DNA of 62,695 bases from a candidate division WOR-1 bacterium RIFCSPHIGHO2_01_FULL_53_15 (GTDB taxonomy: Bacteria > Margulisbacteria > WOR-1 > O2-12-FULL-45-9 > XYB2-FULL-48-7), in the NCBI GenBank assembly GCA_001772335.1, contig METM01000027.1, forward strand, positions 21,776 through 84,470, in the 5' to 3' direction. The position numbers and the translations under genes were made by a program. The notes under the pieces were generated by a model. It was not told the DNA's origin and did no database searches. It worked only from the letters and a program-made list of their open reading frames with translations. How positions within the stretch are numbered: the first letter of the stretch is position 1; every line of letters begins with the position of its first letter. Shown here one piece after another: positions 33,599 to 47,995 of this stretch.

Positions 33599-33605
33599 CG
33601 GCACC

Positions 33606-34208: not shown

Positions 34209-34947
34209 CTCTGTCCTCCTTTATGCTTTTATTGATCCTAATGATATTATTTTCGATACATTCCTTATACTGTTCCGCCACCCATTTAGTTTTTTCTGCC
34301 TCAGCCATACGCGCAAAATCGTTTAGGCAGCGAACCATGGTATCCCACCCGACCCATGAAAACATCGTTCCCTCAACAACATCGGTAGCATTCTCCTTCG
34401 ACAAGAGAAATCCCCATCTACGTTTTTCATTGATGCCAAATGACTCGGCTCTTTTTATCAAATCCACTTCTTCCCTTTTAAGCTGTTCTTTTGTGGGTTT
34501 CATGCCGACCTTGTTTTCGATATGTATAATAAATCTATTCATTGTTTTTCTGATAATCTCGATATCTATCCTTGATTCATCCCCTGAAACTTCTTTCTTA
34601 ACACAGAAATCGGGCCCGTCAAGTATTTCCACGGGCAACCTTTTTTCCCTAATGAAAATACTAAAGAACAGGTCTTTTTGCGCATGAGTTTCTGTTGGGT
34701 CTAACAACCAAGCGAGAAATTTACTGTGTTTCATCTCATCATATGTAAAACCAAGAATATCTAATATGTTGATTTCTTCGGCATTCTTCCTTTGTTTTTC
34801 CCGGACTCCTTTAAGCATCTCTATAAATTGATTAATATATTTTTCATTTTCCGCTAATAACGATGAATAATATTTATCTTCAAGCTCAACAAACGAAGAC
34901 AATGTTCTTTTAAAGCGGCTTACTAATTGCAATGCGGTTTCAGGCAT
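34186..34947 (-). CDS. PD-(D/E)xK nuclease superfamily protein
   Basis: HSKFLAWLLDP ... ESRIDIEI ... FIIHIENKV is the D...E.K arrangement seen in stand-alone PD-(D/E)xK families. The ATG overlaps the surE TAA (TAATG). Confidence 0.55.
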   Translation of the reverse strand: MPETALQLVSRFKRTLSSFVELEDKYYSSLLAENEKYINQFIEMLKGVREKQRKNAEEINILDILGFTYDEMKHSKFLAWLLDPTETHAQKDLFFSIFIREKRLPVEILDGPDFCVKKEVSGDESRIDIEIIRKTMNRFIIHIENKVGMKPTKEQLKREEVDLIKRAESFGINEKRRWGFLLSKENATDVVEGTMFSWVGWDTMVRCLNDFARMAEAEKTKWVAEQYKECIENNIIRINKSIKEDRDEENERT

Positions 34948-35711
34948 TATTTGCTTTTATACCATTCTTTGATTTGTTCCATCATCGCATACTCCGTCAT
35001 ATCGCAATGGAGCGGCGTGATGGAAACATAACCTTGATTGATCGCATCAATATCACTATCCTGCTCGCCTTCCAGGTCAATAACCTCACCAGACAGCCAG
35101 TAATAAATCCGGCCGTGAGGATCGGTCCGCTTGTCGAATTTCTCGATAAAGGCTCGCTTGCTCTGCCGCGTAATCTTAACGCCTTTTACCTTTGACTTCA
35201 CCACCGCTGGAACATTGACATTAAGCAGTATCCCTTTCGGTAAACCTTTTTTAATGACCATTAAGGCTATCTTGCGAGCAAATTGGGCGGCAAAAGTATA
35301 ATCGGGCTTAGTAAATGTCCCCAGGGAGATCGCCATTGAAGGAATACCAAGGATAACGCCTTCCGTCGCACCCGATACTGTCCCCGAATAAAGGACGCTG
35401 AAGCCGGTATTGGGGCCGAGATTGATCCCGGAGATGACGAGGTCAGGTTTTTGCTTGAGGATCGCCCGGACCGCTAGCTTAACGCAATCGGCCGGCGTGC
35501 CAGTAGTTGAGTAAATATTTTTGTCCAACTGGTTGACCCGGAGAGGATCAGAGAGGGTGATCGCGTGACCGACCGCGCTCCGTTCGCTGTCGGGGGCGAC
35601 GATCGTGACATCCCCTATTCCCTTAACCGCTTTGTAGAGCGCCTGGATCCCGGCAGCGCTGATGCCGTCATCGTTAGTTAGAAGTATGCGCGGCTTACGC
35701 TTCCTAATCAT
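34947..35711 (-). CDS. surE: 5'/3'-nucleotidase SurE
   Basis: ILLTNDDGI..AGI, SGINLG.N and GYVSITPL motifs. Confidence 0.92.
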   Translation of the reverse strand: MIRKRKPRILLTNDDGISAAGIQALYKAVKGIGDVTIVAPDSERSAVGHAITLSDPLRVNQLDKNIYSTTGTPADCVKLAVRAILKQKPDLVISGINLGPNTGFSVLYSGTVSGATEGVILGIPSMAISLGTFTKPDYTFAAQFARKIALMVIKKGLPKGILLNVNVPAVVKSKVKGVKITRQSKRAFIEKFDKRTDPHGRIYYWLSGEVIDLEGEQDSDIDAINQGYVSITPLHCDMTEYAMMEQIKEWYKSK

Positions 35712-36169: not shown

Positions 36170-36381
36170 TCAACCTCCGCCCCGCATTGGGCGCATTTGA
36201 GCGTTGAGGAGATAATGTCCAGGTCCGGAGAGCCGCCGGAGAGAACCAGCCCCGATCTCCCTTTTGAGATCGACACTTCTTCCCGATAATTCGCCATCCC
36301 CTCATTGATGAACGAACTGCTCCCGCACGCGCAGGTATAAGTTTCGTTTTCTTCTTTTTGTTTAACTTTTTTCTTTGCCAT
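36166..36381 (-). CDS. small Cys4 zinc-ribbon protein
   Basis: MAKKKVKQKEENETYTCACG...(42 aa)...CAQCGAEVE. The internal ATG 36381 overlaps the ClpX-like 3' end by 20 nt. Confidence 0.4.
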   Translation of the reverse strand: MAKKKVKQKEENETYTCACGSSSFINEGMANYREEVSISKGRSGLVLSGGSPDLDIISSTLKCAQCGAEVE

Positions 36382-37396
36382 TGTTATTTGCCTCCTGTTT
36401 ACCAATATCGAACATCCGGTCCTCAAAAAACCGCCTGACCAGCGGGCCGACACAGCGCCCGCCCATTGCCTCGTGCGCTTTTGAAGCGGTGACGATCAAG
36501 TGAATTATCTCGGTATAGACGCCGGCTTCCTCGCCCGATATGGGAACATAGAAATTATACTCCTCCACTTCTTGCCTGATAAGCTGCTTGACCGCTTCCC
36601 CGTCAAGCGGCTCCAGGCGGATAATATTGCCGAGCCGATTGGCAAATTCCGGGATAAAGCCGTAGCGGACCAGGTCTTTATTATTTATTTCCTCTTTTTC
36701 TGCCAAACGGCCAAACGCCCCGCCAAAGATAAAGAGCACATTGCTGAAGTTAAACTTTTCCCGGTCATACTCCGTGTGGTCCGGCTCATAATAAACCTCC
36801 CCGCCGTCAATAATAGGGAGTAAATCTTGCTGGACGCCGCTGCCGGCAAAATCATCATCGCACCCCCAGCAGTTTCTGATCTTATCGATCTCGTCAATAA
36901 AGACGATCGCCCATTGAGCCTGTCGCCTTTGCTCTTTAGCCGAGGCCCGCAGCAGATCAACGATCTGTTCCGCGTGCATCCCGCCGCGGTAGCCCCGCTG
37001 GGTAAAATTAGTCGCATCAAGCTTTAGGTAAGGGACTTCGGCAATATCGGCCAGCGCCTTGGCCAGCATCGTCTTGCCGCAGCCGGACGGGCCGATCAGC
37101 AGCGCGTTCGTCTTGGGCAGCTGTTTCCCTTCTCGGGCCAACGCATAACGCTTGAGATGCTGGTAAAGGATGACCGACAAACTTTTTTTGGCCTCCGCCT
37201 GCCCCAGGACAGTTTTATTTAGCTCCTCGCAGATCTTTGACGGCGGGATGACAGGGTCATCAGCAAAAAGCTTCTCCTGCCTGGTGAGATTTTCCCGCCG
37301 ACCGCCCGCCGGCTCCTTTTCCGGCGCCACCAGCCCGTCAAACGCCCTGGCGATATCTTCTGCCGACAATAACTCTTTTTCCGACATTTTAAACAC
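36362..37396 (-). CDS. ClpX-like AAA+ ATPase lacking the N-terminal zinc-binding domain and the IGF-loop region
   Basis: L...V.GQ..AKK.LSV..Y.H.KR, Walker A IGPSGCGKTMLAKALA, pore-loop GYRGG, FIDEIDKI, GVQQDLLPIIDGG and GFIPEF.NRL all parallel ClpX. There are no N-terminal Cys residues and only a short segment where the IGF loop would sit. Confidence 0.7.
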   Translation of the reverse strand: MFKMSEKELLSAEDIARAFDGLVAPEKEPAGGRRENLTRQEKLFADDPVIPPSKICEELNKTVLGQAEAKKSLSVILYQHLKRYALAREGKQLPKTNALLIGPSGCGKTMLAKALADIAEVPYLKLDATNFTQRGYRGGMHAEQIVDLLRASAKEQRRQAQWAIVFIDEIDKIRNCWGCDDDFAGSGVQQDLLPIIDGGEVYYEPDHTEYDREKFNFSNVLFIFGGAFGRLAEKEEINNKDLVRYGFIPEFANRLGNIIRLEPLDGEAVKQLIRQEVEEYNFYVPISGEEAGVYTEIIHLIVTASKAHEAMGGRCVGPLVRRFFEDRMFDIGKQEANNNGKEKS

Positions 37397-37406
37397 CTCC
37401 GGCTAT

Positions 37407-37432
37407 ATTATAAAGGGAGCACAGTGACATTA
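37407..37432 (-). promoter_or_regulatory. conserved promoter-like element P2
   Basis: Minus strand: TAATGTCACTGT-GCTCCCTT-TATAAT, then a leader with GGAGG before the ClpX-like ATG. The plus strand shows the near-palindrome TGACATTATGTGTCA. Confidence 0.55.
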
Positions 37433-37521
37433 TGTGTCATGGTCAAGCAGATGCGCTTTAGGCAGATAGCGAACTCGGGCCCTGGCCGTTTCCAGATCGC
37501 TGATATATTCGTGGACTACTT

Positions 37522-37788
37522 TTACCACGCCCAGCCGCCCAGCTCCCGGAGGTCTTTTAGCGCCGGGCCTTTCAGGAACGAAAAAAGAAGAACTTTCTTG
37601 TGCTGGAAGGCAAACCCTTTTAAGGCGTAGGTCATCCCAAGTAAATAATCCTTGATCCGCCTCGCCTCCTCTTTGTTGACCGCTTGCTCCAGTGAAACGA
37701 GGATCTTGCCCGCCTTGCGGTATTTAATCGCCGCCTTTTTCCCCTCGTCATAATCCTTCGGACAATAGATCCTTGATATTACCGGCAT
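37522..37788 (-). CDS. hypothetical protein
   Basis: 88-aa ORF overlapping the upstream gene by 10 nt. Confidence 0.35.
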   Translation of the reverse strand: MPVISRIYCPKDYDEGKKAAIKYRKAGKILVSLEQAVNKEEARRIKDYLLGMTYALKGFAFQHKKVLLFSFLKGPALKDLRELGGWAW

Positions 37789-38633
37789 ATTTCCCCTCCT
37801 TTTTTCTTTTTCCCCGGCGGATCAAAAAGCTCCCAGAGTTGCCGGGGATCATTTAATGAGATCAGCCATTTTCCGCTTCTCATGTTTTTTAATATTTCGA
37901 AGACAACTTTTTGCGGCCGCTTGGACCTGTCCCTCTCCCAGTAGAGCCGGCAGAGGTATTGCACCAGAGGGGCGCAGCTCGCTACCTCCCGGGAGAGCTC
38001 GGCGCCGTTTTCCGTTTCCAGCGCGTTGACGGTAATAATAACAGCGGCATTATATTCTTCGGCCAGCCGCTTGATCTCTTTAACTGCCTTTTGGAGAAGT
38101 CCGGAGCGAAGCGCGGCACGATCACCTTGTTCGGGATAGTATTCGTAGATATAATCGATAGAGTCAATTATCACCAGCCAGGCCGGGATCTTTCTGGCAT
38201 GTTTCTCAACAGGGTCCATCGCCCTGACCTTTTCGGCCGGTTCTTCGTAAGCATATTTCTGGAATAGCAGTTCCATCTCGCTTGGTCTGGCCTCATCTAT
38301 CTCCTCACAGGAAACGCCTTGCACCGGTTCGATATAAAGGGGCGCTTTGGCGCCCGCGCCTGACAGACGATTGGCGATATTTGCCGGCCTTGATGAGGTC
38401 AAATAGAGCGTTTTGATGTTATTTTTGACCGCGCAAAACAGGGCGGCAGAGACGCAGAAGGCGGTTTTACCGGCCGCGTGCGGAGCAGAAACCGCCATAA
38501 TCTCCCCCGGCTCCATGCCGCCGCTCGCCTGGCTAATTAAACGCGCTCCGGTAAATATCGACTCTTTCTTACGCGCTTTTTCGATCTTTTCGGCAGCCAG
38601 TATCTCTTTTATTTTCATAGCGGGCGCCTCCAT
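37779..38633 (-). CDS. RecA-fold ATPase resembling the DnaB helicase C-terminal domain
   Basis: GGMEPGEIMAVSAPHAAGKTAFCVSAAL (Walker A) and VIIDSIDYI (Walker B-like). There is no DnaB N-terminal domain. Confidence 0.55.
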   Translation of the reverse strand: MEAPAMKIKEILAAEKIEKARKKESIFTGARLISQASGGMEPGEIMAVSAPHAAGKTAFCVSAALFCAVKNNIKTLYLTSSRPANIANRLSGAGAKAPLYIEPVQGVSCEEIDEARPSEMELLFQKYAYEEPAEKVRAMDPVEKHARKIPAWLVIIDSIDYIYEYYPEQGDRAALRSGLLQKAVKEIKRLAEEYNAAVIITVNALETENGAELSREVASCAPLVQYLCRLYWERDRSKRPQKVVFEILKNMRSGKWLISLNDPRQLWELFDPPGKKKKGGEICR

Positions 38634-38639
38634 ATGCTA

Positions 38640-38665
38640 TTTATACCATGGGCGGTATGACATTA
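38640..38665 (-). promoter_or_regulatory. conserved promoter-like element P3 (leaderless layout)
   Basis: Minus strand: TAATGTCATACC-GCCCATGG-TATAAA, then 6 nt before the ATG at 38633. Confidence 0.6.
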
Positions 38666-38671
38666 ATTGTC

Positions 38672-39418
38672 TTAGCGGTTCAAGATAGTTTTTGCCAGAG
38701 CAAGAGTGGGTTTTTTACCGGCGAGGGAAGCGTAGGCGGCGACCCTGATCAGGGCGCCCTCAAGCGCCCTGATGTTTGTAGTAATCCTTTTTACCAGATA
38801 AGCAAGCACTGCGGCGGGGACTTTATAATTTCCCAGTTTTGCTTTATTTTTTAAGATAGCAAGCCGCGTCTTAATTTCCGGCTGTTTGATCTTAACAATA
38901 GTCCCATGCTTAATAACCGGCAACTGGCACAACTTTTGGCTAAATATCGTGCCAGGCGGCCGGTCGCTCGTGATCACTATCTGTTTGCCCAATTTATACA
39001 ATTCGCTCAAAATGCCGATCAGCTCGCCCGCAGTCCGCTCCTTATGCCGCACAAATTGAAGATCGTCCAAAAGGAAGATGTCAGGGGCGCAATACTTCTT
39101 TCGGAAGCTATTATATTTGCCCAGCCGGAAAGCTTTAACAAGATCGCTGACGAATCTTTCCGTTGACACATAAGCGACTTTGCGCGGCGGCCTCTTATTT
39201 AAAATATAATTACCGATGGCCCACATTAAATGCGTTCTCCCCAACCCTTCCCCTCCGGTAATAAATAACGGGTTGTGCCGCTTCTCCAGCCCCCTGGCGA
39301 CATCAAGCGCCGCTTTAAAAGTGACGCGATTGGACGCGCCAACAACAAACGAGCTAAAAGCATATCTTTTGTAACGCCCATCCTTTTTCAGGTAAATACT
39401 ATTATCAAAGCTTTTCAC
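38672..39418 (-). CDS. DnaA domain-III-only (Hda-like) AAA+ protein with Walker-A Lys replaced by Arg
   Basis: FSSFVVGASN..A...A, NPLFITGGEGLGRTHL, LLDDLQF, ITSDRPP and the box VII/VIII-like NIRALEGALIRV. It ends where DnaA domain IV would begin. Confidence 0.7.
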   Translation of the reverse strand: MKSFDNSIYLKKDGRYKRYAFSSFVVGASNRVTFKAALDVARGLEKRHNPLFITGGEGLGRTHLMWAIGNYILNKRPPRKVAYVSTERFVSDLVKAFRLGKYNSFRKKYCAPDIFLLDDLQFVRHKERTAGELIGILSELYKLGKQIVITSDRPPGTIFSQKLCQLPVIKHGTIVKIKQPEIKTRLAILKNKAKLGNYKVPAAVLAYLVKRITTNIRALEGALIRVAAYASLAGKKPTLALAKTILNR

Positions 39419-39442
39419 GATCGCCTCATTTTCTTGCCCGCA

Positions 39443-39655
39443 TCAGTTTTTAGCTTTTATCTGCGCGATGAGCTCTCTTGCCTCACCTACGCGCTGCTTG
39501 TTATCCAGATACGCATTTCTCATCGTCTTCGCCAGACCAATCAAACCGTTTAAGCTCTCGCTCATGGATCTGTCCAGGGCATCGATATTGTTATCGATCC
39601 GGGAAAGATTTTCCAACAGAATCTCTGTCCGGTCATTTCCTCGCTTTTTTCGCAT
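39443..39655 (-). CDS. small coiled-coil hypothetical protein
   Basis: 70-aa ORF downstream of element P4. Confidence 0.35.
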   Translation of the reverse strand: MRKKRGNDRTEILLENLSRIDNNIDALDRSMSESLNGLIGLAKTMRNAYLDNKQRVGEARELIAQIKAKN

Positions 39656-39779
39656 GGCACACCCCCTCCACCCTATATAAACGTTTTATTTTTCCAAAAA
39701 ACTAAACTGGCGCCACTTTTTCGCGGCTTTATGCTTAATTTATTTTTCAAACTGGCGGCATCAGAATAATATATACCAT

Positions 39780-39805
39780 GGGCGGTGTGACATTAATGGG
39801 CAGGG
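39780..39805 (-). promoter_or_regulatory. conserved promoter-like element P4
   Basis: Minus strand: TAATGTCACACC-GCCCATGG-TATATA. It shares a 27-nt block (26/27 identical) with P3. Confidence 0.55.
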
Positions 39806-39815
39806 GATGCGGTAT

Positions 39816-40628
39816 TTATTTCTTTATTTTATCGCCAAGCCACTGGAGATCTTTATCGCTCCACCAGCGGCAAGCAAAATGGGGAACGACAAATATACGC
39901 GGCCTTAGAGCAGCGAAGCTAAGCATCGTGCAACCCTTACCGTTATGTTTATTGATCCTAATTTCCTGGCATTCATTTTCTTTCCCTTCGGCAAACACAG
40001 AAATATATTCTTTGGTATGCAATCTGCCAAAGCACAACACAAAATCAATATGCTCCCTGTTCTTATCGAACATCTCCTTCAACCGCCCAAATCTATTACT
40101 TTTGCACCATTTGTAATATTCTTCCTTGTCTTTCATGCCGGTTACTGTTTTTTCGGCCTCGCTAAAAGTAGTTGTTGTTTTTGGAAAATCAAGGGGATAT
40201 AGATTTACCTGAAAAGTATCCCCATTTTGGCATTTAGCGGTAAATAATTTTTTGGAAATATATTCCTGCCAATACTCTTTCCAGTTATTGCTATTTTCTA
40301 TCTGAGCAATCACCTTTGCCATTTTTTGGCATGTCCGCCAGCTTGTATATTTACCGTTGCGTTCGTCATTATATTTCAATTTGAAGTTATCATCCCATTC
40401 CATAGGCACTTGATCACGACTGAATCTTTCGTTTTCACTCCGGATTTGATCGACTAATCCTTTGTGCCTGTTATCCTTTGTCTTTTCATCAACTTTTCTG
40501 CCGTATTCAACACCGCTAAACCAATATTTGCCCCCGGGATTGCCCACCATGCCGGAATAGCTTAACGCCCATTCCTCAAATTCATTATTTACATGATATT
40601 CATGAGAATTTGTGTCATCATTATTCAT
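39816..40628 (-). CDS. hypothetical protein
   Basis: 270-aa ORF whose ATG overlaps the stop of the HEAT-like gene (ATGA). No motif recognised. Confidence 0.45.
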   Translation of the reverse strand: MNNDDTNSHEYHVNNEFEEWALSYSGMVGNPGGKYWFSGVEYGRKVDEKTKDNRHKGLVDQIRSENERFSRDQVPMEWDDNFKLKYNDERNGKYTSWRTCQKMAKVIAQIENSNNWKEYWQEYISKKLFTAKCQNGDTFQVNLYPLDFPKTTTTFSEAEKTVTGMKDKEEYYKWCKSNRFGRLKEMFDKNREHIDFVLCFGRLHTKEYISVFAEGKENECQEIRINKHNGKGCTMLSFAALRPRIFVVPHFACRWWSDKDLQWLGDKIKK

Positions 40629-40870
40629 TGATTTTTTTCTCCTTGCTTAAATTGTATCATACCAGCCGCCTCCCTCACCAGATAATGCTCATCAAGAGCC
40701 AGGCGGCGTAAAACCTTAAGCGGGCATTTCTTATGCTTCGCCACTTTTTTTCGCACCGGAAAGAACTCGTCGCGACTAAGCCGAGCTAAGATGCCGGCGG
40801 TTGCGGACGGATTGGCGGCGGCCGCTTCCCTGACCGGCCATGACTCATCACGGGAAAAGCGCTCTAACAT
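40625..40870 (-). CDS. HEAT/leucine-rich-variant-like repeat protein
   Basis: Repeated D(E)..PVR..AA motifs (DESWPVREAAA, DEFFPVRKKVA, DEHYLVREAA). Confidence 0.45.
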   Translation of the reverse strand: MLERFSRDESWPVREAAAANPSATAGILARLSRDEFFPVRKKVAKHKKCPLKVLRRLALDEHYLVREAAGMIQFKQGEKNQ

Positions 40871-41034
40871 ATCCAGCGGGATCCGCCTGTCCCTGATCGC
40901 TTGAGCCCTTTGGCTTTGGCCCAGGCCTTTGTCCGCTGCGTCTTCCCCTGACCTGTACCACCCCAGAGAAACGGCGTCACGTATATCCCCTCGCTATTTT
41001 TCTGCCATAAGACATCCAGCGCTTTTTCGATCAT
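40864..41034 (-). CDS. 56-aa P-loop fragment (not in the ORF track; possible frameshifted N-terminus of the HEAT-like gene)
   Basis: GGAGG-N7-ATG, then MIEKALDVLWQKNSEGIYVTPFLWGGTGQGKTQ..., i.e. beta-strand plus Walker A, terminating 56 codons in. The HEAT frame is open across its 3' half. Confidence 0.3.
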   Translation of the reverse strand: MIEKALDVLWQKNSEGIYVTPFLWGGTGQGKTQRTKAWAKAKGLKRSGTGGSRWIC

Positions 41035-41118
41035 GTTGATTGCCTCCGGAAGTTATTATAAATGAGCCACCCTGACAGAAAGTGGCAGGGGGTTGTGGTA
41101 TAATAAATATCAAGCAAC

Positions 41119-41826
41119 ATGATCGAAGCTGAGCTTAGCCACAAAATAGATAACCGCTCCGAAGACGTATTAACCTCTACGGTTTTTGGCCTATTAAAGT
41201 ATTCTTTTGCTAAAGATCTATTGATCTCTTTCTTAGGCAAAGCCCAATCTGTTTCCGACCCCAGCTCATATTTTTCACATTTGATCGGGGATCACCTTTT
41301 ATTTGCCGGTGATTATAGATTCGTCTTTTGGAAATATTTTGATCGTTATGGCGAACCGGACCTAATAATCGAAGGGCCCGATTATGTCATTATAATCGAA
41401 GTTAAATATTTATCCGGGCTGTCGGGCGAATTGCAGCTGGAAAATTATCATAATTTAATGGAGAATAAATATAAGAAGAAAGCCAATAAATATTTGATTT
41501 TCTTAACCGCGGACTTATCCATACCCGGGTTACCCGCCTCAACAATAAATTTACTTAAAGACAAGAATTTTTTCTGGCTATCATGGTATGAACTAAACAA
41601 AGCGATATTATCTATTTCTATGACTTGCGGAGGCACATTAAAAGAGATATCGGCTGATCTGCTTAGATTGCTGAAAGAAAGCAGAAATATCGTAGAATTT
41701 GAAGGATTCAGCAAATATAATATTATGCCTAGGCAGAACTATCTTTTCTGGAAACAGAGGGAAAGTATTTTCAGCCAATATCGTAAAGCTGAATTGCCAG
41801 ACCCAATATTTTTTAAGGGGGAGTAA
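41119..41826 (+). CDS. PD-(D/E)xK-like nuclease-fold protein
   Basis: GEPDLIIEG.DYVIIIEVKY gives a D...(E)VK core. Preceded by TGTGGTATAAT (extended -10). Confidence 0.45.
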   Translation: MIEAELSHKIDNRSEDVLTSTVFGLLKYSFAKDLLISFLGKAQSVSDPSSYFSHLIGDHLLFAGDYRFVFWKYFDRYGEPDLIIEGPDYVIIIEVKYLSGLSGELQLENYHNLMENKYKKKANKYLIFLTADLSIPGLPASTINLLKDKNFFWLSWYELNKAILSISMTCGGTLKEISADLLRLLKESRNIVEFEGFSKYNIMPRQNYLFWKQRESIFSQYRKAELPDPIFFKGE

Positions 41827-41830
41827 TTAT

Positions 41831-42418
41831 ATGGATGACAAAGGCAATAATGTGATTGATTTAATCAGGCAGATGGAAAAACTATATATTGAGATCTCAA
41901 GGCTGATTAAATGTTTTGATAAAAATATCCAAAAGAGAGGATATCTCCTCCCTTCAAGCTCCTCATCTGTAATAAAAGATATTTCACAATCATTAAATGC
42001 GCCAGAAAATTGGCTCCCAATGTGGTTATATCGCAACTACCAAAACAACGCCAACAAAGAAGTATTATCCTTGAATATCGCCCTAGATTATCCTGAGTTC
42101 CCTGAAAGGATAAATGAGCCATTAGTCCTTGTCGCGAAATTTAGCGGTAAAAAAGTTGATCTTGATCATGCGTGGTATCCATGGGATATATATTTTCATT
42201 TCAGGCCATTAACAAAGCGGTACAATAAAATATACCTGCTTAAGGATTTTAACCTTAATGATAATGATACTTTGGAAGAGTTATCCGACTGGTCAAAGGA
42301 AGAAAAAGAAAATCTGACAAATCACTTTAAAGCCATTAGTTTTATTGCCGCACCCCTGATGGAGATGAGCGATGAAAAGAACATTATCAAATTCATTGAT
42401 CCCATTTTTAATCAATAA
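41831..42418 (+). CDS. hypothetical protein
   Basis: The internal ATG 41831 lies directly after the upstream stop. 195 aa, no motif recognised. Confidence 0.45.
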   Translation: MDDKGNNVIDLIRQMEKLYIEISRLIKCFDKNIQKRGYLLPSSSSSVIKDISQSLNAPENWLPMWLYRNYQNNANKEVLSLNIALDYPEFPERINEPLVLVAKFSGKKVDLDHAWYPWDIYFHFRPLTKRYNKIYLLKDFNLNDNDTLEELSDWSKEEKENLTNHFKAISFIAAPLMEMSDEKNIIKFIDPIFNQ

Positions 42419-42426
42419 TATTTAAT

Positions 42427-43410
42427 ATGGAACGCCACATACTATTCAGGATTTATGATATCGACCGGATGCTCAAGCGGAAAGAATATCCGAACTGCAC
42501 AAAGCTAAAAGAATATTTCCTTGAACATCACGGCTTAACCCTCTCGATCCGGACGATCATGCGCGACATTGACACTATGCGGCTTGACCTCGGCGCTCCT
42601 ATCGAGTATGACCGCGAAAAGAACGGCTATTACTATGAAAATGAGAGTTTCTCGCTCCCGGCCGTCCGCCTGACCGAAGGGGAACTGATCTCGATCTTCC
42701 TGGCCGAAGAGATCTTGAAGAAATATAAAAATACCCCGTTTGAAGCGACGATCAAGCGCGCGTTTGAGAAAGTCGAATTGCTCCTGCCACAGAGCGTCTC
42801 GATCGATTTCAATGAGATCGGCCAGGCCTACTCTTTTGATATCCGGCAGACCCGCCCCCTGGACAAGCAGTCGGCCAAGGTTTTTGACACGCTGGCCAAG
42901 GCGATCGGAGATAAAATGAGTGTGGAGATCAACTATTACGCCATCAGCCGCAACGCGACGCAAAAACGGGTCATCGATCCTTATCACCTGCGCCATACCC
43001 AGGGCGCCTGGTATTTGGTCGGTTATTGCCATCTCAGGAAAGAGGTGCGGACATTCGCGGTCAACCAGATCAGATCTATAAAAACGTTGAAAGAGCCTTT
43101 CACCGTCCGGGCGGACTTCTCGCCGGAAAAATTCTTTGAGCACTCCTGGGGGATATCGGAAGGTGGGCCTTTGACAAAAGTCGTGGTTAAAATCGACAAA
43201 GAGATCGCTCGCTGGTTTGAAGACCGCAAGCTCCACTCCAGCCAGCAAACCAAAGAAAACAAAGACGGCTCCCTCACCCTAACCTTCCGCGTCGCCGGGA
43301 CGAATGAGATCAAGCGGTGGATATTGAGCCAGGGAAGATATGCTAAAGTGGTGGAGCCGAAAGAATTGGAGCAGGAAATTAGGAGAGAGGTAATGGAGAT
43401 TTTGAAATAG
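42427..43410 (+). CDS. WYL-domain transcriptional regulator (wHTH-WYL-WCX architecture)
   Basis: N-terminal HTH region, then RVIDPYHLRHTQGAWYLVGYCHLRKEVRTFAVNQIRSI, the classic WYL core, and a C-terminal extension. Confidence 0.85.
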   Translation: MERHILFRIYDIDRMLKRKEYPNCTKLKEYFLEHHGLTLSIRTIMRDIDTMRLDLGAPIEYDREKNGYYYENESFSLPAVRLTEGELISIFLAEEILKKYKNTPFEATIKRAFEKVELLLPQSVSIDFNEIGQAYSFDIRQTRPLDKQSAKVFDTLAKAIGDKMSVEINYYAISRNATQKRVIDPYHLRHTQGAWYLVGYCHLRKEVRTFAVNQIRSIKTLKEPFTVRADFSPEKFFEHSWGISEGGPLTKVVVKIDKEIARWFEDRKLHSSQQTKENKDGSLTLTFRVAGTNEIKRWILSQGRYAKVVEPKELEQEIRREVMEILK

Positions 43411-43428
43411 GGAGGGGATGATTTAATT

Positions 43429-44250
43429 ATGTTGGAAAAATATTGGTATCCCAAAATTCAGAAGTATTTAGAAAACGAAGGCTATGTTTGTCATGGGTTT
43501 TACAAAAATGGGAAGAAGCTCGATTTTATTGATACGGGGATAGGCAATGCTCGCATTGATGTTCTGGGCATAAAAAGGGCATCTTTAATCGCATCAAATT
43601 TTCAACTCGAAACAATTGGAGTTGAAGTAAAACATATCGGTAAAATTACCATTAAAAATATAAGACAAGCCGCAAGTTATGCTCACCTTTGCACAAGATG
43701 CTATTTGGCGGCTCCAGTAGAAAGATTCTCCGAAAATGATAAGAAAAATGCAGCTCAAGCAGGGGTTGGATTAATCCGCTTAAAAAGAAAAAGAGTTGAT
43801 GTTATTGTTGAATCTAATAAGTTTCAACCAGACATCGATTTAATAAATCAGTTTCTATGGTTCTTAAATGTGGTTTTTTGCCCAATATGCAGAACATATA
43901 AGCATCGCTACGACCCAAAGGAACTTAAATATAATGGTGGATCTTGGAGAAATGATATATTTTCAAAAAAGAATAAATGGATATATATTTGCAACGAATG
44001 CAATATTAAGCTTTCAAAGAATACCAGACAATATCTAATGGCCCGGGAACTGGAACAGATTAGAAATCGATTTGAGGGAATTGAACAAAAACTTGCTAAA
44101 ACAAAAAGACATGTAGATAAAATAGACAACTATTATTACCATAAATATTTGAAGCTGAAGGGCAAAGGAGAGCGAAGCATCAAAAGGCTTGACAATTACT
44201 ATTATTCAAAGCATGCAAATCTAAACAGGGCATTGAAGAAGATTAAATAA
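43429..44250 (+). CDS. PD-(D/E)xK-like domain + Cys4 zinc ribbon + coiled-coil protein
   Basis: ARIDVLGI ... IGVEVKH core, CPICRTY...CNECN ribbon, and a C-terminal repeat (DNYYY.KY/H). Confidence 0.45.
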   Translation: MLEKYWYPKIQKYLENEGYVCHGFYKNGKKLDFIDTGIGNARIDVLGIKRASLIASNFQLETIGVEVKHIGKITIKNIRQAASYAHLCTRCYLAAPVERFSENDKKNAAQAGVGLIRLKRKRVDVIVESNKFQPDIDLINQFLWFLNVVFCPICRTYKHRYDPKELKYNGGSWRNDIFSKKNKWIYICNECNIKLSKNTRQYLMARELEQIRNRFEGIEQKLAKTKRHVDKIDNYYYHKYLKLKGKGERSIKRLDNYYYSKHANLNRALKKIK

Positions 44251-44299
44251 TTTAACATCCCCCCGTCCCGAGTGGCAGATTGACAAAGAAGGGATAATC

Positions 44300-44818
44300 A
44301 TGAAAGAACATGAAGTAATAGCAAAGACTTTAGTTTACTTAATAAAAAAAGAACAAGCAGAGATTAATTCAGTCGCGACCCCTAAAAAACATGAAAAATA
44401 CATTAAAAAAGCCATCAATAATGCCGGTCTGACAAAAAATCAAATAAATTTGATAACTTTTAAACAGGTAGGGGCGGATATAATTGCTGTTCTAAAATTT
44501 AAATCCGGACGACCACAAAAACGCATACAAATCGAAGCAAAAGGCGGAAATGTATATTACGGCATCTATACAGCATTGGGTCAGTTCATCTGTTTAAAAG
44601 AATCGCCTAGCACATATCATTGGTTTGCGTTCGCTTTCCCACTTCGTTGGCGAGAGAAAATAAGGAAATGGCTTTTAACTCCCAAGGAAAGGATAAAACC
44701 GGTAATTCGAGATATTATAAATCTATACACCAAAAACGGACAAGGCTTATGGTTTTATTTTATAAATGAAAAAACAGGGAAAGCAATAAAAGAAACATGG
44801 GAAACGACCTTGCGATAA
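44300..44818 (+). CDS. PD-(D/E)xK-like nuclease-fold protein
   Basis: GADIIAV ... RIQIEAKGG core. Confidence 0.4.
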   Translation: MKEHEVIAKTLVYLIKKEQAEINSVATPKKHEKYIKKAINNAGLTKNQINLITFKQVGADIIAVLKFKSGRPQKRIQIEAKGGNVYYGIYTALGQFICLKESPSTYHWFAFAFPLRWREKIRKWLLTPKERIKPVIRDIINLYTKNGQGLWFYFINEKTGKAIKETWETTLR

Positions 44819-44915
44819 CGAAGAAACCATGGAATGGCCAAATTGAATAACTCATAAAAAAATAATATCATAACCTTTTTTGTGTATTTGGCAAAAAGCC
44901 CCCACCCCTGTCCCG

Positions 44916-44941
44916 TAGTGTCATACCCCTCGTGCCATAAT
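44916..44941 (+). promoter_or_regulatory. conserved promoter-like element P5
   Basis: TAGTGTCATACC-CCTCGTGC-CATAAT, 10 nt before the ATG at 44952. Confidence 0.6.
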
Positions 44942-44951
44942 TACCGGTAGA

Positions 44952-45395
44952 ATGCCGTTTAAAACTTTAACCGATCTATATTTTGACAACAAAATTCAGG
45001 TCATCCCGCCCCGGGCGCTGACTTTCTTCGGCTACCTTAATGAGCTTGAAAAGACGCTGAAGACACCGGGGCTGATCGATCTGGATGAGGCCGACTTAAT
45101 GACCATCCTGTTCGGCGCCAGCCGGGCGGCTATTGTTGTGATCGAGTCCCCGCTTAAAGAGATAACCGGAAAATTGCGCCGCACTCTGCGGCAGGTCAAA
45201 GCCAAAAAAGCGGACGGCGCAATCTTCCATGTCATCGGCGATGAAAACATGACGCTATCAGATGTCAACGATGTCGCTGAAACAATTTATACCGTTCTCA
45301 ATGACAAGGCCAATATTATTTTTGGCGCGGCGATCGATGAAGAGATGAAAAGAACCGTCAGGGTGCTGATAATTCTGGTCAATCGGGATGAATGA
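44952..45395 (+). CDS. FtsZ C-terminal-domain-only homologue (T7-loop region onward; no GTP-binding domain)
   Basis: TPGLIDLDEADLMTIL parallels FtsZ TPGLINLDFADVKTIM. MTLSDVNDVAETIYTVLNDKANIIFGAAIDEEMKRTVRVLIILV parallels FtsZ LSLYEVQEAADIV...NMIFGSVINENLKDEIVVTVIATG. Confidence 0.7.
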   Translation: MPFKTLTDLYFDNKIQVIPPRALTFFGYLNELEKTLKTPGLIDLDEADLMTILFGASRAAIVVIESPLKEITGKLRRTLRQVKAKKADGAIFHVIGDENMTLSDVNDVAETIYTVLNDKANIIFGAAIDEEMKRTVRVLIILVNRDE

Positions 45396-45509
45396 AATTA
45401 AACAATGAACCCGAGGAGGTATGCGGATGAGGATGAACCAAGAAGTTTCCGTGAAGATGTCAGAGAAGAAACGAAAGCAGTTGCCCGCGGGTAGTCATGC
45501 CTGGCCTCG

Positions 45510-45535
45510 TAGTGTCATACCCCTCCTGCCATAAT
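45510..45535 (+). promoter_or_regulatory. conserved promoter-like element P6
   Basis: TAGTGTCATACC-CCTCCTGC-CATAAT, 12 nt before the ATG at 45548. Confidence 0.6.
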
Positions 45536-45547
45536 TACCGGCATAAT

Positions 45548-45835
45548 ATGTTGACTTTCCTTAAACAATTATTCTGCAAGCATAAATGGGCGGCGCGCAA
45601 AGACATGCCCGTCGCGGCCTTGATCAGATCACGGGGTAGAACAAAGAGGTGCAGTAAATGTCAAAAAGAGTGGACCGACCCGTCGCTTAGGGGCATCCCC
45701 ATAAGTTTATCCTACCGAATAGTCGAATTCTGGGAAATAATGTATTGGGACCGGAAAATACTTCGCTTAAGCATGAGCGACGCTTACAAAGCATCGAAAA
45801 AGCTGAACGCGCTCACTTTACAGGAAAGGAGCTGA
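45548..45835 (+). CDS. small hypothetical protein (Cys/Lys-rich)
   Basis: The internal ATG immediately after element P6 (MLTFLKQLFCKHKW...CSKCQKEW) gives 95 aa. Confidence 0.35.
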   Translation: MLTFLKQLFCKHKWAARKDMPVAALIRSRGRTKRCSKCQKEWTDPSLRGIPISLSYRIVEFWEIMYWDRKILRLSMSDAYKASKKLNALTLQERS

Positions 45836-45844
45836 TCTGCCCCA

Positions 45845-45870
45845 TAATGTCATCCCCCTAGTGCCATACT
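45845..45870 (+). promoter_or_regulatory. conserved promoter-like element P7 (leaderless layout)
   Basis: TAATGTCATCCC-CCTAGTGC-CATACT, 6 nt before the ATG at 45877. Confidence 0.55.
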
Positions 45871-45876
45871 ACAACT

Positions 45877-46083
45877 ATGATTAATTTACTAATGCCCGGG
45901 CTTGTGTTGATCGCCATGATCTGGAGTTTTGGCTGTGTCGTTTACTGGCTCGCCAAGACCGCGGAGTGGCTGGAAAACGCCGGCCGACCGCCGGAGATCC
46001 ATATCCACAATCACCCCGTTCAGCGGGAAGTTTATGTCTCAAGGATCATTGAGAAAGAGAGACGGATTTTCTTGCCTAGATAG
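45877..46083 (+). CDS. small membrane protein
   Basis: 68 aa with one N-terminal TM helix (LLMPGLVLIAMIWSFGCVVYWL). Confidence 0.35.
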   Translation: MINLLMPGLVLIAMIWSFGCVVYWLAKTAEWLENAGRPPEIHIHNHPVQREVYVSRIIEKERRIFLPR

Positions 46084-46128
46084 CTAGATAGGTGGTATAA
46101 TATTATCAAATATGCGGGGTGTAAAATA

Positions 46129-46671
46129 ATGAGCAAAAGTCATGAGTTACATTTAATGATCGGTGAGTCGATCAATTCGGCCTTTGAAGGGAAAGCAGGC
46201 ATTAAAGTTGTCAGAGATGAGGCTTGCGGTGGGAAGCAGCATATCCCCCTGTTTTTATCTGAAAATAAGAAGAGGGAAAATGTTATTTGTAATGTGGATT
46301 TAATGGTCATAAAAGATAACCACATATCCATAATTATTGAGATTGAGGAATCAAATGTAAAGCCAACGCAGATTTGCGGCAAATACCTGACCTCCGCGAT
46401 TTCAGTCTGTTACTTTCACGCAAAGGAGAACAATAAACCCGTAAGAATGTCAAAAAACGTCTTATTTATTCAAGTTTTGGATAATATAAAATTGCCGAAA
46501 GGATCGGTTAAGATCCCGCAATGGATACAAATCGGGGAAAGGATCAAAAAAGTAATAAGCGACTTTCACGGCACATCAGTCAATAAATATGAATTGCTTT
46601 TTGGGAATAAGGGCCAATTTAGCGGCCTTGAAAAAGCGTTGATAAATAAGATTGAGGCGCACCTAACCTAA
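46129..46671 (+). CDS. PD-(D/E)xK-like nuclease-fold protein
   Basis: NVDLMVI ... IIIEIEESNVKP core. Preceded by TGGTATAAT. Its stop directly abuts the ATG of the HD gene. Confidence 0.4.
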   Translation: MSKSHELHLMIGESINSAFEGKAGIKVVRDEACGGKQHIPLFLSENKKRENVICNVDLMVIKDNHISIIIEIEESNVKPTQICGKYLTSAISVCYFHAKENNKPVRMSKNVLFIQVLDNIKLPKGSVKIPQWIQIGERIKKVISDFHGTSVNKYELLFGNKGQFSGLEKALINKIEAHLT

Positions 46672-47286
46672 ATGAATAACATCGACATCAATGCCCGCTA
46701 TCAATCGCTAAAAAACAATATCTCCGGCCGAAAACCCAACTTCGATCCATTCATCTCCATGCTGGAAAAAGATACCTCCTGGCTCACCAGCCCGGCCAGC
46801 ACCCGCTTCCACCTTAACCACGAAGGCGGCCTGCTTGAGCACAGCGTCGGAGTGGCGGAAAATCTGCTGAAATTCAGGGCGGCGCTGGCGCCGGAGATCT
46901 CGGAAGAGTCGTGCGTCATCGTCGGCCTTTTACATGACATCGGCAAGATCGGCATGCCGGGCAAGCCGAGATATCATAAGAACGAGAACCAATGGGAGAT
47001 CAAGAATCGGGACATGACTTATGTCGTGAACCCCGATGAGGTCTACATGAATTTAGCGGCGCGTAGCTTGTATATTATCGCCAAATATCTCCCGCTCTCG
47101 GACGCCGAAGCCCAGGCGATCCTTTACCATGACGGCCAGTATGTCGATTTCAATCGCGAAGTCGCCCACAAGGAAGAGCCCCTCACCCTGCTCGCCCACT
47201 GGGCCGATTATTGGACGGCGCATATTTACGAAGAGAAGAGGACCATAAAAGAAGACATTAGTTACTTTGATCGGCGGCAAAAATGA
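46672..47286 (+). CDS. HD-domain metal-dependent phosphohydrolase
   Basis: FHLNHEGGLLEHSVGV and VGLLHDIGK motifs, with a later HD (ILYHDGQY). Confidence 0.8.
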   Translation: MNNIDINARYQSLKNNISGRKPNFDPFISMLEKDTSWLTSPASTRFHLNHEGGLLEHSVGVAENLLKFRAALAPEISEESCVIVGLLHDIGKIGMPGKPRYHKNENQWEIKNRDMTYVVNPDEVYMNLAARSLYIIAKYLPLSDAEAQAILYHDGQYVDFNREVAHKEEPLTLLAHWADYWTAHIYEEKRTIKEDISYFDRRQK

Positions 47287-47440: not shown

Positions 47441-47492
47441 ATAAATACTAAATGCTAAATACTAAACAAGACCAAAATACTAATGACCAAAA
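47441..47492 (+). repeat. heptamer-based (CTAAATA-type) repeat block, 5' flank and N-terminus of four-helix-bundle gene 1
   Basis: ATAAATACTAAATGCTAAATACTAAACAAGACCAAAATACTAATGACCAAA. A direct copy lies at 47856-47907. Confidence 0.7.
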
Positions 47493-47850
47493 AACAAAAA
47501 GACGCTATGATCTTGAGGAAAGAACAATGTTGTTTGCAAGGGAGACCAATGCTTTCGTTCGGCGACTGCCAAAAGATGTAACGGTATCTGAGAACGGCAG
47601 ACAATTAGTTCGCTCGGCTGGTTCCGTGGCCGCCAACTACATTGAAGCCAACGAAGCGCTAAGCAAGAAGGATTTTATAATGAGGATCAAGATCTGCCGA
47701 AAGGAAGCGAAAGAAAGTCGCCTTTGGCTCAATCTTCTCCAGCCGCCAATTCAGGAGATGACTTATAAGGACCGCCTTCTGGATGAGGCAACGCAACTCA
47801 TGAAAATATTTGGGGCGATACTGACAAAGACGGGAAACACAAAGTTTTAA
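47452..47850 (+). CDS. four-helix-bundle protein (23S rRNA intervening-sequence protein family)
   Basis: YDLEERT..FA......RLPK......QL.RSAGSVAANYIEANEA.SKKDF..R.KICRKEAKES..WL.LL is the family signature. Confidence 0.85.
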   Translation: MLNTKQDQNTNDQKTKRRYDLEERTMLFARETNAFVRRLPKDVTVSENGRQLVRSAGSVAANYIEANEALSKKDFIMRIKICRKEAKESRLWLNLLQPPIQEMTYKDRLLDEATQLMKIFGAILTKTGNTKF

Positions 47851-47855
47851 GCTCT

Positions 47856-47907
47856 TAAATACTAAACGCTAAATACCAAACAAGAACAAAAATGCTAATG
47901 GTCAAAT
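47856..47907 (+). repeat. direct copy of the heptamer repeat block
   Basis: TAAATACTAAACGCTAAATACCAAACAAGAACAAAAATGCTAATGGTCAAA, compared with 47441-47492. Confidence 0.65.
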
Positions 47908-47950
47908 TTTCAAAATAATGAAGACTCGTTTCGGTCATTCAGATTTTGTG

Positions 47951-47995
47951 TTATTTGAATTTGTTTAGTATTTAGAAATTAGCATTTAGTATTTC
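47951..47995 (-). repeat. inverted orphan copy of a four-helix-bundle gene 5' end
   Basis: 47951-47975 is 25/25 identical to 60322-60346, the 5' coding end of gene copy 2. No ORF follows. Confidence 0.7.

Follow-up and report, generated by a model that had tools for sequence, protein, structure and literature searches.

DriD from Caulobacter crescentus is a 327-amino-acid (aa) protein with the domain architecture wHTH-3HB-WYL-WCX (wHTH, winged helix-turn-helix) that forms a homodimer and acts as an SOS-independent activator upon DNA damage; in its target promoters, all of which lack a -35 element, it binds a pseudo-palindrome, the site overlapping the -35 position and keeping a constant spacing to the -10 hexamer, and its regulon includes the division inhibitor gene didA (PMC13004042). 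PafBC is activated by single-stranded DNA (ssDNA) and controls DNA repair genes through a motif that replaces the -35 element (PMC11804915; PMC6789036), ssDNA is also the ligand of CapW (PMC11662680), and sensing of ssDNA is common to DriD, PafBC and CapW. Here, a regulator with wHTH, WYL and WCX domains was analyzed together with its gene neighborhood in a stretch of 62,695 nucleotides (nt) from contig METM01000027.1 of the candidate division WOR-1 bacterium RIFCSPHIGHO2_01_FULL_53_15 (assembly GCA_001772335.1), a groundwater metagenome bacterium; this stretch is hereafter called the window (62.7 kb). The regulator gene lies in a run of open reading frames (ORFs) that also encodes the nuclease-like proteins P1, P4, P5 and P8, the matchless protein P2, a protein with an FtsZ_C domain and an HD-domain phosphohydrolase. 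An initial annotation had interpreted the WYL regulator and the nucleases as one defence module of the BrxR/CapW type. The present analysis instead favours, with a probability of roughly 0.6, a mosaic of two layers, in which a resident WYL regulon has taken up foreign nuclease genes as cargo.

Orthologues of the regulator are encoded in Saganbacteria contigs with identities of 87% (L015), 83% (L023), 81% (L020) and 64% (L016), the closest orthologues (87%, 64%) coming from metagenome-assembled genomes (MAGs) of Candidatus Saganbacteria. In the 4.4-kb contig L015, the end of the ClpC gene, a ClpX-like gene, a RecA-like gene, the WYL gene and the SurE gene are contiguous, and the corresponding blocks are found in the window at 28614-29256 (ClpC end), 36402-37449 (ClpX-like), 37936-38671 (RecA-like), 42425-43362 (WYL) and, in inverted orientation, 35688-35002 (SurE). 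Since these blocks are contiguous in L015, the window is about 7 kb longer from clpC to the ClpX-like gene. Compared with L015, it also holds 3.75 kb (38672-42424, including P1-P2) between the RecA-like and WYL genes and further DNA after WYL; P1 is absent from L015. In L023 an FtsZ_C gene lies 50 nt after the WYL stop codon and P4 is absent, in L020 a different gene coding for 213 aa follows WYL, and in L016 other genes follow, among them one for an AbiEii toxin and a probable antitoxin partner (8009-9414), which shows that defence or toxin-antitoxin cargo occupies the same hotspot in another lineage. In the relatives with 81-87% identical WYL proteins, ClpX-like, RecA-like, SurE or FtsZ_C genes adjoin the regulator and P1, P2, P4, P5 and P8 are absent. 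The linkage between regulator and effectors expected of a BrxR/CapW-type system is not kept, as WYL occurs without these genes in L015, L016, L020, L021 and L023.

Composition separates the same genes. The GC content at third codon positions (GC3) is 0.40 for P1, 0.38 for P2, 0.31 for P4, 0.30 for P5, 0.45 for P8 and about 0.35-0.45 for the upstream PDDEXK_4 and Endonuc_Holl cassettes, as against 0.59-0.69 for WYL (0.67), HD, ClpX-like, RecA-like, FtsZ_C (0.60) and orf45877, while flanking host genes reach 0.71-0.81. At least five low-GC blocks can be recognized (P1-P2; P4-P5; P8; an uncharacterized gene with PDDEXK_4; two Endonuc_Holl genes), most of them coding for small, stand-alone nucleases of the PD-(D/E)xK type. 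The blocks lie just past a promoter or a stop codon and are absent from the syntenic loci of the relatives, the cargo at the same points being strain-specific. P1-P2 lie between a promoter box, described below, and WYL, P4-P5 between the WYL stop codon and the box of the FtsZ_C gene, and P8 between orf45877 and the HD gene. Homologues of the inserted genes occur in surroundings without WYL: a P4 homologue obtained by word-indexed search lies in an archaeal-looking contig next to genes for a metallo-beta-lactamase/RMMBL protein and an HNH protein, a P5 homologue lies in another beside an AAA_14/DUF4143 ATPase gene among purine genes, and five sampled contexts of P8 homologues all differ from each other, with a WYL or HD gene in 0/5, some of the P8 homologues being located in islands with toxin-antitoxin and defence-type genes. 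Synteny in the relatives, GC3 and the WYL-free contexts of the homologues together indicate that WYL is resident, apparently an old resident of the genome, and that the nuclease genes were inserted. It is therefore considered probable that the latter are later foreign insertions and that the locus is an insertion hotspot, not one dedicated anti-phage system.

Junctions of the inserted blocks carry repeated sequences. Four copies of a 59-nt repeat (30769, 32429, 33556, 34966), which stems from the surE 3' end, bound three cassettes, and further junction repeats consist of the WYL 3' end with its following box and of the RecA-like promoter (two copies, the second ahead of the DnaA/Hda-like unit). 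These repeated junction sequences point to cassette-wise accretion, and the locus appears to be a hotspot of recombination or insertion like those of defence islands. The first copy of the surE repeat extends to about 110 nt and puts the start codon of the DUF2779 gene at the position at which PDDEXK_4 starts after surE; by its sequence, this junction between surE and the DUF2779 gene looks like a site of serial insertion. No integrase or attC-type sites were seen in scans of the window, and integration linked to a tRNA gene was rejected, as the window has no tRNA gene.

Independent assemblies (ENA, JGI, NCBI, Logan) contain 18 contigs with identical gene order, so that the arrangement is not an assembly artefact and a chimera could be rejected; the ORFs are unbroken in 18/18 of these population contigs. 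All ORFs and motifs listed in the initial annotation are present where it placed them, and its domain calls for the WYL regulator, the HD hydrolase and the FtsZ part proved correct in profile tests. The coordinates of all features are collected in Table 1.

Table 1. Features of the WYL locus and its surroundings (positions in the window; L numbers denote other contigs).
Feature	Position	Strand	Remarks
Run of 12 ORFs	41119-47286	+	All co-directional; from ORF list
P1, stand-alone PD-(D/E)xK nuclease-like	41119-41826	+	D81, E94-V-K96; foreign-type composition
P2, 195 aa, matchless	41831-42418	+	Apparently inserted with P1 between box promoter and WYL
wHTH-WYL-WCX regulator, 327 aa	42427-43410	+	Apparently resident; GC3 0.67
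P4	43429-44250	+	Predicted N-terminal PD-(D/E)xK domain, C4 zinc ribbon, Lys-rich helical tail; probable foreign cargo
P5, orphan, 172 aa	44300-44818	+	D60...E79-A-K81 motif; probable foreign cargo
FtsZ_C-only protein, 147 aa	44952-45395	+	T7-loop-like GLIDLDEAD and C-terminal subdomain, no GTP-binding domain
Vestige of WYL gene 3' end	45432-45493	+	Translates ...EPRSFREDVREETKAVARG*; matches C-termini of L015 and L023 WYL proteins
95-aa ORF with Cys pairs	45548-45835	+	Gene call in L003; weak PHROG matches only; GC3 0.58 (longer ORF)
orf45877, 68 aa, hydrophobic	45877-46083	+	Leads unit orf45877-P8-HD; GC3 0.65
P8, predicted restriction-endonuclease fold	46129-46671	+	D57, E71-x-E73, K78; probable foreign cargo between orf45877 and HD
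HD-domain phosphohydrolase	46672-47286	+	Host-like composition, GC3 0.69
Box, AAA_14 ATPase	32328-32361		Weaker match
Box, ClpX-like operon	37407-37440	-	ATGACA-CATAA-TGTCAC-N11-TATAAT; orthologous site in L015
Box, RecA-like/SepF-like operon	38640-38673	-	AAGACA-ATTAA-TGTCAT-N11-TATAAA
Box, 70-aa ORF and DnaA/Hda-like unit	39770-39803	-	Near-duplicate of RecA-like promoter
Bidirectional box, P-loop fragment gene/P1	41055-41104	both	CTGACA-GAAAG-TGGCAG (41072-41088)
Box, FtsZ_C gene	44908-44941	+	CTGTCC-CGTAG-TGTCAT-N11-CATAAT; first copy of 40-nt repeat; orthologous box in L020 and L023
Box, 95-aa ORF	45502-45535	+	Second copy of 40-nt repeat
Box, orf45877	45837-45870	+	Third, diverged copy; TGTCAT-N11-CATACT
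DUF2779 protein (Cas4-like PD-(D/E)xK and RNase H-like exonuclease)	29273-30751	-	DUF2779 5e-35, Cas4 1e-5
Three cassettes	30769-35024	-	AAA_14/DUF4143 ATPase; two Endonuc_Holl genes; uncharacterized gene and PDDEXK_4
ClpX-like AAA+ ATPase, 341 aa	36362-37387	-	AAA_2 5e-28; conserved WYL neighbor; GC3 0.64
SepF-like gene, 88 aa	37522-37788	-	SepF 26.9 bits vs gathering threshold 27; downstream of RecA-like gene
RecA/DnaB_C-like ATPase, 279 aa	37779-38618	-	AAA_25, Rad51 and DnaB_C matches
DnaA/Hda-like ATPase, 248 aa	38672-39418	-	Bac_DnaA 2.7e-46, no DNA-binding domain; 70-aa ORF in unit

The regulator matches the Pfam families WYL (6e-22, residues 152-219), WCX (1.9e-19, residues 249-325) and, weakly, HTH_11 (residues 38-68), as well as the PADLOC WYL profile (1.8e-45 over residues 8-314). 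Its closest solved homologues are PafBC (2.6e-20), PafB (4.6e-10) and chains of DriD (2.6e-9 to 6.6e-9), which are at the same time the closest characterized ones. The similarity to CapW (2e-5) is weaker than that to PafBC, PafB and DriD, and no BrxR match with E<=1e-3 was obtained among solved homologues. A trait shared with BrxR/CapW-type regulators is a palindromic, predicted operator in the promoter of the regulator's own unit: in L015 it lies at the WYL promoter, and in the window it precedes P1-P2-WYL.

This predicted operator is a pseudo-palindromic box, (C/A)TGACA-N5-TGTCA(T/C), located 10-11 bp upstream of the -10 hexamer at the usual -35 position. It occurs at about nine promoters, all of them within about 14 kb around WYL and none near radA, clpC or other genes. 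The exact pattern TGTCAT-N10-11-YATAAW was found three times (0.00 expected) and a relaxed pattern four times (0.11 expected); the palindrome with <=1 mismatch has three occurrences, all at 37.4-40.6 kb. In a scan with a position weight matrix (PWM), the box sites scored 8.8-22.1 and the rest of the window <=4.1. Generic sigma-70 and terminator scans of the run did not exceed shuffled expectation and were hence not used. In L015, the box is a perfect palindrome, ATGACA-TTATT-TGTCAT, between the divergent RecA-like and WYL genes, with a -10 hexamer 10-11 nt outside each arm. The bidirectional box ahead of P1 has the same layout, with TATAAT hexamers at 41099-41104 (P1) and at 41055-41060 (P-loop fragment gene on the minus strand), and PWM scores of 14.0 (-) and 8.8 (+) rank 4 and 6 of 994 candidates. 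The box at 38640-38673, by comparison with L015, appears to be the remaining half of an ancestral bidirectional promoter shared by the WYL and RecA-like genes.

Eight further box sites were detected in relatives (four in L015, two in L020, one each in L021 and L023), every one of them upstream of an ORF and, as in the window, with a spacing of N10-11 to the -10 hexamer. The genes concerned are homologues of the ClpX-like, RecA-like, WYL, SurE and FtsZ_C genes, and two minus-strand sites lie ahead of a TPR gene (L020) and of the gene that diverges from WYL (L021). Sites that are not duplicated (ClpX-like, RecA-like, WYL, SurE) have nothing in common but the arms and the -10 hexamer. Genes for RecA/DnaB_C-like, ClpX-like and DnaA/Hda-like ATPases, a SepF-like gene and the FtsZ_C-only gene are preceded by the box and can be compared with the regulons of DriD and PafBC. 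None of the foreign genes has a box of its own.

From the DriD-like promoter layout and the similarity to DriD and PafBC, we infer that a dimer of the WYL regulator binds the box and controls a local regulon, the combination of a single gene with a palindromic box implying a homodimer. The units predicted to be controlled comprise the ClpX-like operon, the RecA-like/SepF-like operon, the DnaA/Hda-like unit, the P-loop fragment gene, P1-P2-WYL, the FtsZ_C gene, the 95-aa ORF and orf45877-(P8)-HD. The dimer would probably change its activity upon binding ssDNA arising from DNA damage or infection, and the units would be switched on by activation or derepression. The low-GC genes would form a second layer inserted into these units; as the cargo lacks its own box, it would be read from the resident box promoters and induced with the regulon, the nucleases being expressed as passengers. 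The initial annotation had described a WYL-repressed defence operon, and one part of this description holds: P1, P2 and WYL are co-directional with P4 and P5 (gaps 4-49 nt) and their promoter carries the shared box, so that these nuclease genes are probably co-transcribed with WYL and controlled through its circuit. Most likely, the cargo would act as solitary, methyltransferase-free nucleases on foreign or damaged DNA, and it may well be defence cargo. An inducible nuclease cargo is plausible; the dedicated operon of the BrxR/CapW type is not supported.

Of the four nuclease cores proposed in the initial annotation, three (P1, P4 and P8) have support for a PD-(D/E)xK fold. P1 matches Pfam PDDEXK_4 (24.3 bits, gathering threshold 22.3) over residues 81-137, which span both parts of its motif, and among PADLOC profiles it matches PDC-M15A over its full length (1e-8), with three PDC-M15A models scoring 1e-8 to 1e-5, and PDC-S26 (8e-8). 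A partner gene for PDC-M15 was not recognized, since P2 and the other neighbors match no PADLOC model, and no paper on PDC-M15 was found. P2 itself matches no entry of Pfam, PADLOC, NCBIfam or the PDB and no plasmid or viral sequence. For P4, which has no match to a curated family, a word-indexed search returned two homologues and an exhaustive HMMER search with residues 1-200 returned 113 cluster representatives. Residues E3, D44, E61, E66-V-K68 and Q80 and the four cysteines (C151, C154, C188, C191) are 82-98% conserved in this family (114 sequences; E3 91%, D44 97%, E66 98%, K68 89%, Q80 82%), and scattered members match DUF5655 (2.9e-7), Mrr_cat, HSDR_N_2 and RE_SacI. Family conservation and these superfamily matches of its members give good support for the prediction that P4 joins a PD-(D/E)xK domain to a C4 zinc ribbon.

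For P8, at least 199 homologues were found in bacteria and archaea, in which D57, E71 and E73 are invariant and K78 is conserved in >=90%, and no Pfam family was found in a scan of 103 family members. Its AlphaFold model is confident (predicted local distance difference test, pLDDT, 92.8), and Foldseek retrieved a 'Restriction endonuclease' from BFVD (E=9.4e-5, probability 1.0, with moderate TM scores of 0.46-0.56) as well as Mrr, PD-(D/E)XK, DUF2726 and ERCC4 matches and, in the PDB, EcoT38I (E=0.07), so that the model supports a restriction-endonuclease-like fold. P5 has only two homologues; IEAKGG is invariant, but for one of the two the alignment of the aspartate is ambiguous. The AlphaFold model from the three sequences has a pLDDT of 60.7, falling below 50 across the putative core, and no PDB, Pfam, profile or Foldseek match was obtained. 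The nuclease nature of P5 is suggested by its motif alone and is unverified. Profile-profile comparison did not relate the P4, P5 and P8 families to each other, and profile searches against PDB sequences with the P4 and P5 alignments and with P1 and P2 gave nothing useful. In scans of viral contigs, the P8 family was found at one locus and P1 and P2 at none, the P4 alignment being too diverse for the pattern search; in plasmid tblastn searches, P1 gave one weak partial match and P2 none. P4 and P8 homologues repeatedly adjoin, in unrelated genomes, a gene for a metallo-beta-lactamase/RMMBL (beta-CASP-like) protein of about 450-490 aa (L009 8500-10825; L012-L014 3640-5543; L036 4001-5962), and the two genes may constitute a nuclease module.

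The nuclease cluster noticed at the outset is real and larger than had been stated, since profile searches revealed four further nuclease-type genes upstream of the run (DUF2779/Cas4-like, two Endonuc_Holl and a second PDDEXK_4). With respect to recognized defence systems, the statement that none could be named agrees with the PADLOC profiles: for 20 neighboring proteins, these returned only PDC families, which are candidate families, and generic similarity to Cas4, Cas3-HD and AAA proteins, and no recognized defence system adjoins the regulator.

The remaining genes of the run belong mostly to the resident layer. The FtsZ_C-only protein matches Pfam FtsZ_C (7e-15, residues 75-142) and aligns to residues 224-338 of FtsZ from M. 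jannaschii; lacking the GTP-binding tubulin domain, it is not a full FtsZ. Homologues of 147-149 aa follow WYL in L020 (1682-2131) and L023 (391-837), with 46-53% identity among the relatives, and this family keeps the motif GLI(D/N)L(D/N)xxD, has no GTPase domain and is preceded every time by its own box promoter. The initial annotation had called it an FtsZ fragment, but it is not debris, being conserved in relatives as a small gene with its own box promoter; its sequence makes it a candidate for a division inhibitor or a capper of FtsZ filaments. The vestige of a WYL 3' end, followed by a box copy, separates the FtsZ_C gene from the 95-aa ORF. The HD protein matches Pfam HD (7e-7; 30 bits vs 22) and phrog_28876, a phosphohydrolase (3e-22), with weak similarity to Cas3-HD and MobH, and contains LLHDIGK at residues 86-92 with the HD pair of the H...HD motif at 88-89. 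The HD protein as a partner of P8 was rejected on account of its GC3 (0.69 vs 0.45) and of the absence of an HD neighbor in the sampled P8 contexts. Behind the run, a gene of the four-helix-bundle family of 23S rRNA-intervening-sequence proteins (47452-47850) lies within 47442-47994, framed by 35-nt AT-rich repeats, which are in direct orientation at two places (47442, 47856) and inverted at 47954-47994.

The possibility that the WYL regulator, the nucleases and the HD protein form a co-evolved anti-phage system, held by a BrxR/CapW-type repressor and derepressed upon infection, gains some weight from the tight co-directional unit with the box promoter ahead of P1, from the PADLOC candidates (PDC-M15A for P1, PDC-S01 and PDC-S26 for nearby genes) and from the sensing of ssDNA by CapW-type repressors as well (PMC11662680). 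We nevertheless consider it improbable, because the nucleases are missing at the locus of relatives whose WYL proteins are 81-87% identical, GC3 breaks strongly at each gene boundary, a WYL or HD neighbor was found at none of the examined P4, P5 and P8 homologues, similarity to CapW ranks below that to PafBC and DriD with BrxR not found at E<=1e-3, and P2 matches no PADLOC model; the claim of a single BrxR/CapW-type module is thus not supported by synteny, composition, homologue contexts or regulator similarity. It is unlikely that the nuclease genes are selfish or decaying cargo without benefit for the host (homing-endonuclease-like genes, orphan restriction genes or element remnants) at an insertion-tolerant site. 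Small, solitary genes with a sporadic occurrence in bacteria and archaea, cassette-like junction repeats, the HNH endonuclease gene next to the P4 homologue and the pseudogene-like debris nearby (P-loop fragment, vestigial WYL 3' end) would fit such an origin, which is countered by ORFs intact in 18/18 contigs, by the strong conservation of catalytic residues in the P4 and P8 families, by the matches of P1, PDDEXK_4 and the AAA_14 ATPase to defence-candidate families of PADLOC and by the presence of P8 homologues in islands with toxin-antitoxin and defence-type genes.

Several observations weigh against the two-layer mosaic in the form favored here. The link between box and WYL comes from co-location, autoregulatory position and analogy, and a different regulator, such as one of the LexA type encoded at another locus, could be the owner of the box. 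The P1-side arm of the palindrome (TGGCAG) is imperfect. Several box copies (the three 40-nt repeats and the promoters of the RecA-like and DnaA-like units) are recent duplicates and hence cannot count as separate signs of selection. A TGn extended -10 element is present in most box promoters, which could therefore be constitutive and repressed by the WYL protein; the lack of a -35 element resembles activator-dependent promoters, and the TGn element would allow simple repression. Furthermore, L015 is a single short MAG contig, PADLOC matches are to candidate families only, P5 is without fold support and P2 is matchless. In its strongest form, this criticism would make the box a site of an SOS/LexA-type or other regulator, or a duplicated promoter module, with WYL controlling little beyond itself, in accordance with the SOS-like appearance of the regulon (a RecA-like gene, possible division or replication modulators, nucleases), the recent duplication of several sites and an extended -10 element that could drive transcription without an activator. 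This alternative seems doubtful at best, given that all sites in the window cluster within about 14 kb around WYL, that the palindrome is located in the WYL promoter itself in L015 and next to WYL in L021, that the non-duplicated sites have only arms and -10 hexamer in common, as expected of a binding site, and that no LexA-like gene was seen in the window in profile scans. The two-layer mosaic may also be extended to a more ambitious form, which is speculative and, as a whole, rather unlikely: the box regulon would be an inducible module for the arrest of replication and division, consisting of truncated paralogues of core proteins (the FtsZ C-terminal subdomain with its T7 loop as a filament capper, and the SepF-like, DnaA/Hda-like, ClpX-like and RecA-like proteins) under an ssDNA-sensing WYL switch, and at the same time a landing pad where solitary nucleases accrete, in an integron-like manner, behind box promoters, so that arrest and nuclease attack would be induced together upon DNA damage or phage infection.

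Among the neighboring genes, the ClpX-like protein is 73% identical in L015 and 57-60% identical in L016, and the RecA-like gene is 58% identical in L015, where it is divergent from WYL. The ClpX-like, SepF-like, RecA-like and DnaA/Hda-like genes (36362-39418, minus strand) all code for short paralogues of core machinery. Between them and P1, an ORF of 56 aa that contains the Walker A motif GGTGQGKT and then an 81-aa ORF with LRV/HEAT repeats (40625-41034, minus strand) look like the remains of a broken ATPase gene divergent from the box promoter; the P-loop fragment gene and P1 both start with ATGATCGAA (MIE), within a 17-nt inverted repeat (41026-41042 / 41111-41127). Further upstream, the DUF2779 protein, whose gene neighbors WYL in other Saganbacteria, is 70% identical in L020 and 36% identical, over its full length, to proteins encoded directly downstream of WYL in L030 and L031. 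DUF2779 proteins are uncharacterized fusions of Cas4-like and RNase H-like exonuclease domains (PMC13621843, PMC3985635). In the Bacteroidetes-type contigs L017, L018, L030 and L031, whose WYL proteins are 28-32% identical, a gene for an AAA ATPase of about 575 aa is divergent from WYL and DUF2779 follows directly after WYL, a neighborhood of three genes that is conserved. The long-standing partners of this WYL family appear to be the AAA+ ATPase and DUF2779, not the small nucleases, and the DUF2779 gene of the window seems to have been separated from WYL by insertions. The upstream cassette families match PDC-S01 (5e-29) and PDC-S26 (1e-20) of PADLOC. The tandem Endonuc_Holl genes, which resemble those of archaeal Holliday junction resolvases (32496-33543, minus strand; the longer call of the first overlaps the second), are both broken into shorter ORFs in the population variant L002.

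The occurrence of a WYL regulator amid nuclease-like genes is not sufficient to call a WYL-controlled defence system, as synteny and composition here separate regulon from cargo. For a WYL regulator from Saganbacteria, an uncultivated phylum in which regulation is unstudied, the analysis predicts an operator and a regulon, and it suggests that circuits similar to those of DriD and PafBC exist outside Proteobacteria and Actinobacteria. The hotspot, with foreign nucleases placed precisely into stress-regulated units, would give potentially toxic cargo a safe and inducible expression. Two uncharacterized families of predicted nucleases were defined, one P4-like with a zinc ribbon (113 clusters) and one P8-like (at least 199 proteins), and a conserved protein consisting of the FtsZ C-terminal part only was identified as a candidate division inhibitor. 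The truncated replication and division paralogues under box promoters are the most intriguing aspect of the locus.

In comparison with known systems, the locus combines known kinds, namely a WYL regulon similar to those of DriD and PafBC and a cargo hotspot. The regulator resembles DriD in its length of 327 aa, in its wHTH-WYL-WCX architecture and in sequence (about 3e-9), and its predicted box overlaps the -35 position at a fixed -10 distance and has a site in the regulator's own divergent intergenic region. It differs from DriD in that the box is of the 6-N5-6 type, as opposed to the 7-N7-7 motif ATACGAC/GTCGTAT, that the target genes are unrelated, that the candidate modulators are truncated paralogues (FtsZ_C-only, SepF-like, DnaA/Hda-like) and not a DidA-type peptide, and that the host phylum is uncultivated. 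PafBC from Actinobacteria, which regulates the response of mycobacteria to DNA damage, is the best-scoring solved homologue (2.6e-20); unlike the single gene and palindromic box found here, it comprises two WYL proteins, as a heterodimer or in fused form, and uses a non-palindromic motif, and no proteasome genes are located near the regulator in the window. With CapW and BrxR, which repress defence systems such as CBASS and BREX, the regulator shares the domain architecture, a palindromic, predicted operator in the promoter of its own unit and defence-like genes downstream that vary by strain (AbiEii in L016, nucleases here), whereas no recognized defence system adjoins it, similarity is weaker (CapW 2e-5, BrxR not detected) and the conserved partners are ClpX-like and RecA-like ATPases, SurE, FtsZ_C and DUF2779. 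The small nuclease-like proteins of the run are comparable to solitary Mrr-like or type IV PD-(D/E)xK nucleases (PDDEXK_4, Mrr_cat, DUF5655) and to the PADLOC candidates PDC-M15A and PDC-S26, with which they share the E...D...ExK...Q motif and the alpha-beta-beta-beta-alpha-beta core, a small size and the lack of a cognate methyltransferase, and the zinc ribbon predicted for P4 parallels DNA-binding modules added to such nucleases; in contrast to them, P4, P5 and P8 score below curated family thresholds, and in P8 ExE...K replaces ExK. Finally, fixed flanks, strain-specific cargo (nucleases, ATPases, toxin-antitoxin genes) and repeats that bound cassettes are features of defence islands and integron cassette arrays; unlike integron arrays, the window showed no integrase, attC-type sites or tRNA target, its repeats are 3' ends of resident genes (surE, WYL) and resident promoters, and its cassettes lie inside regulated units.

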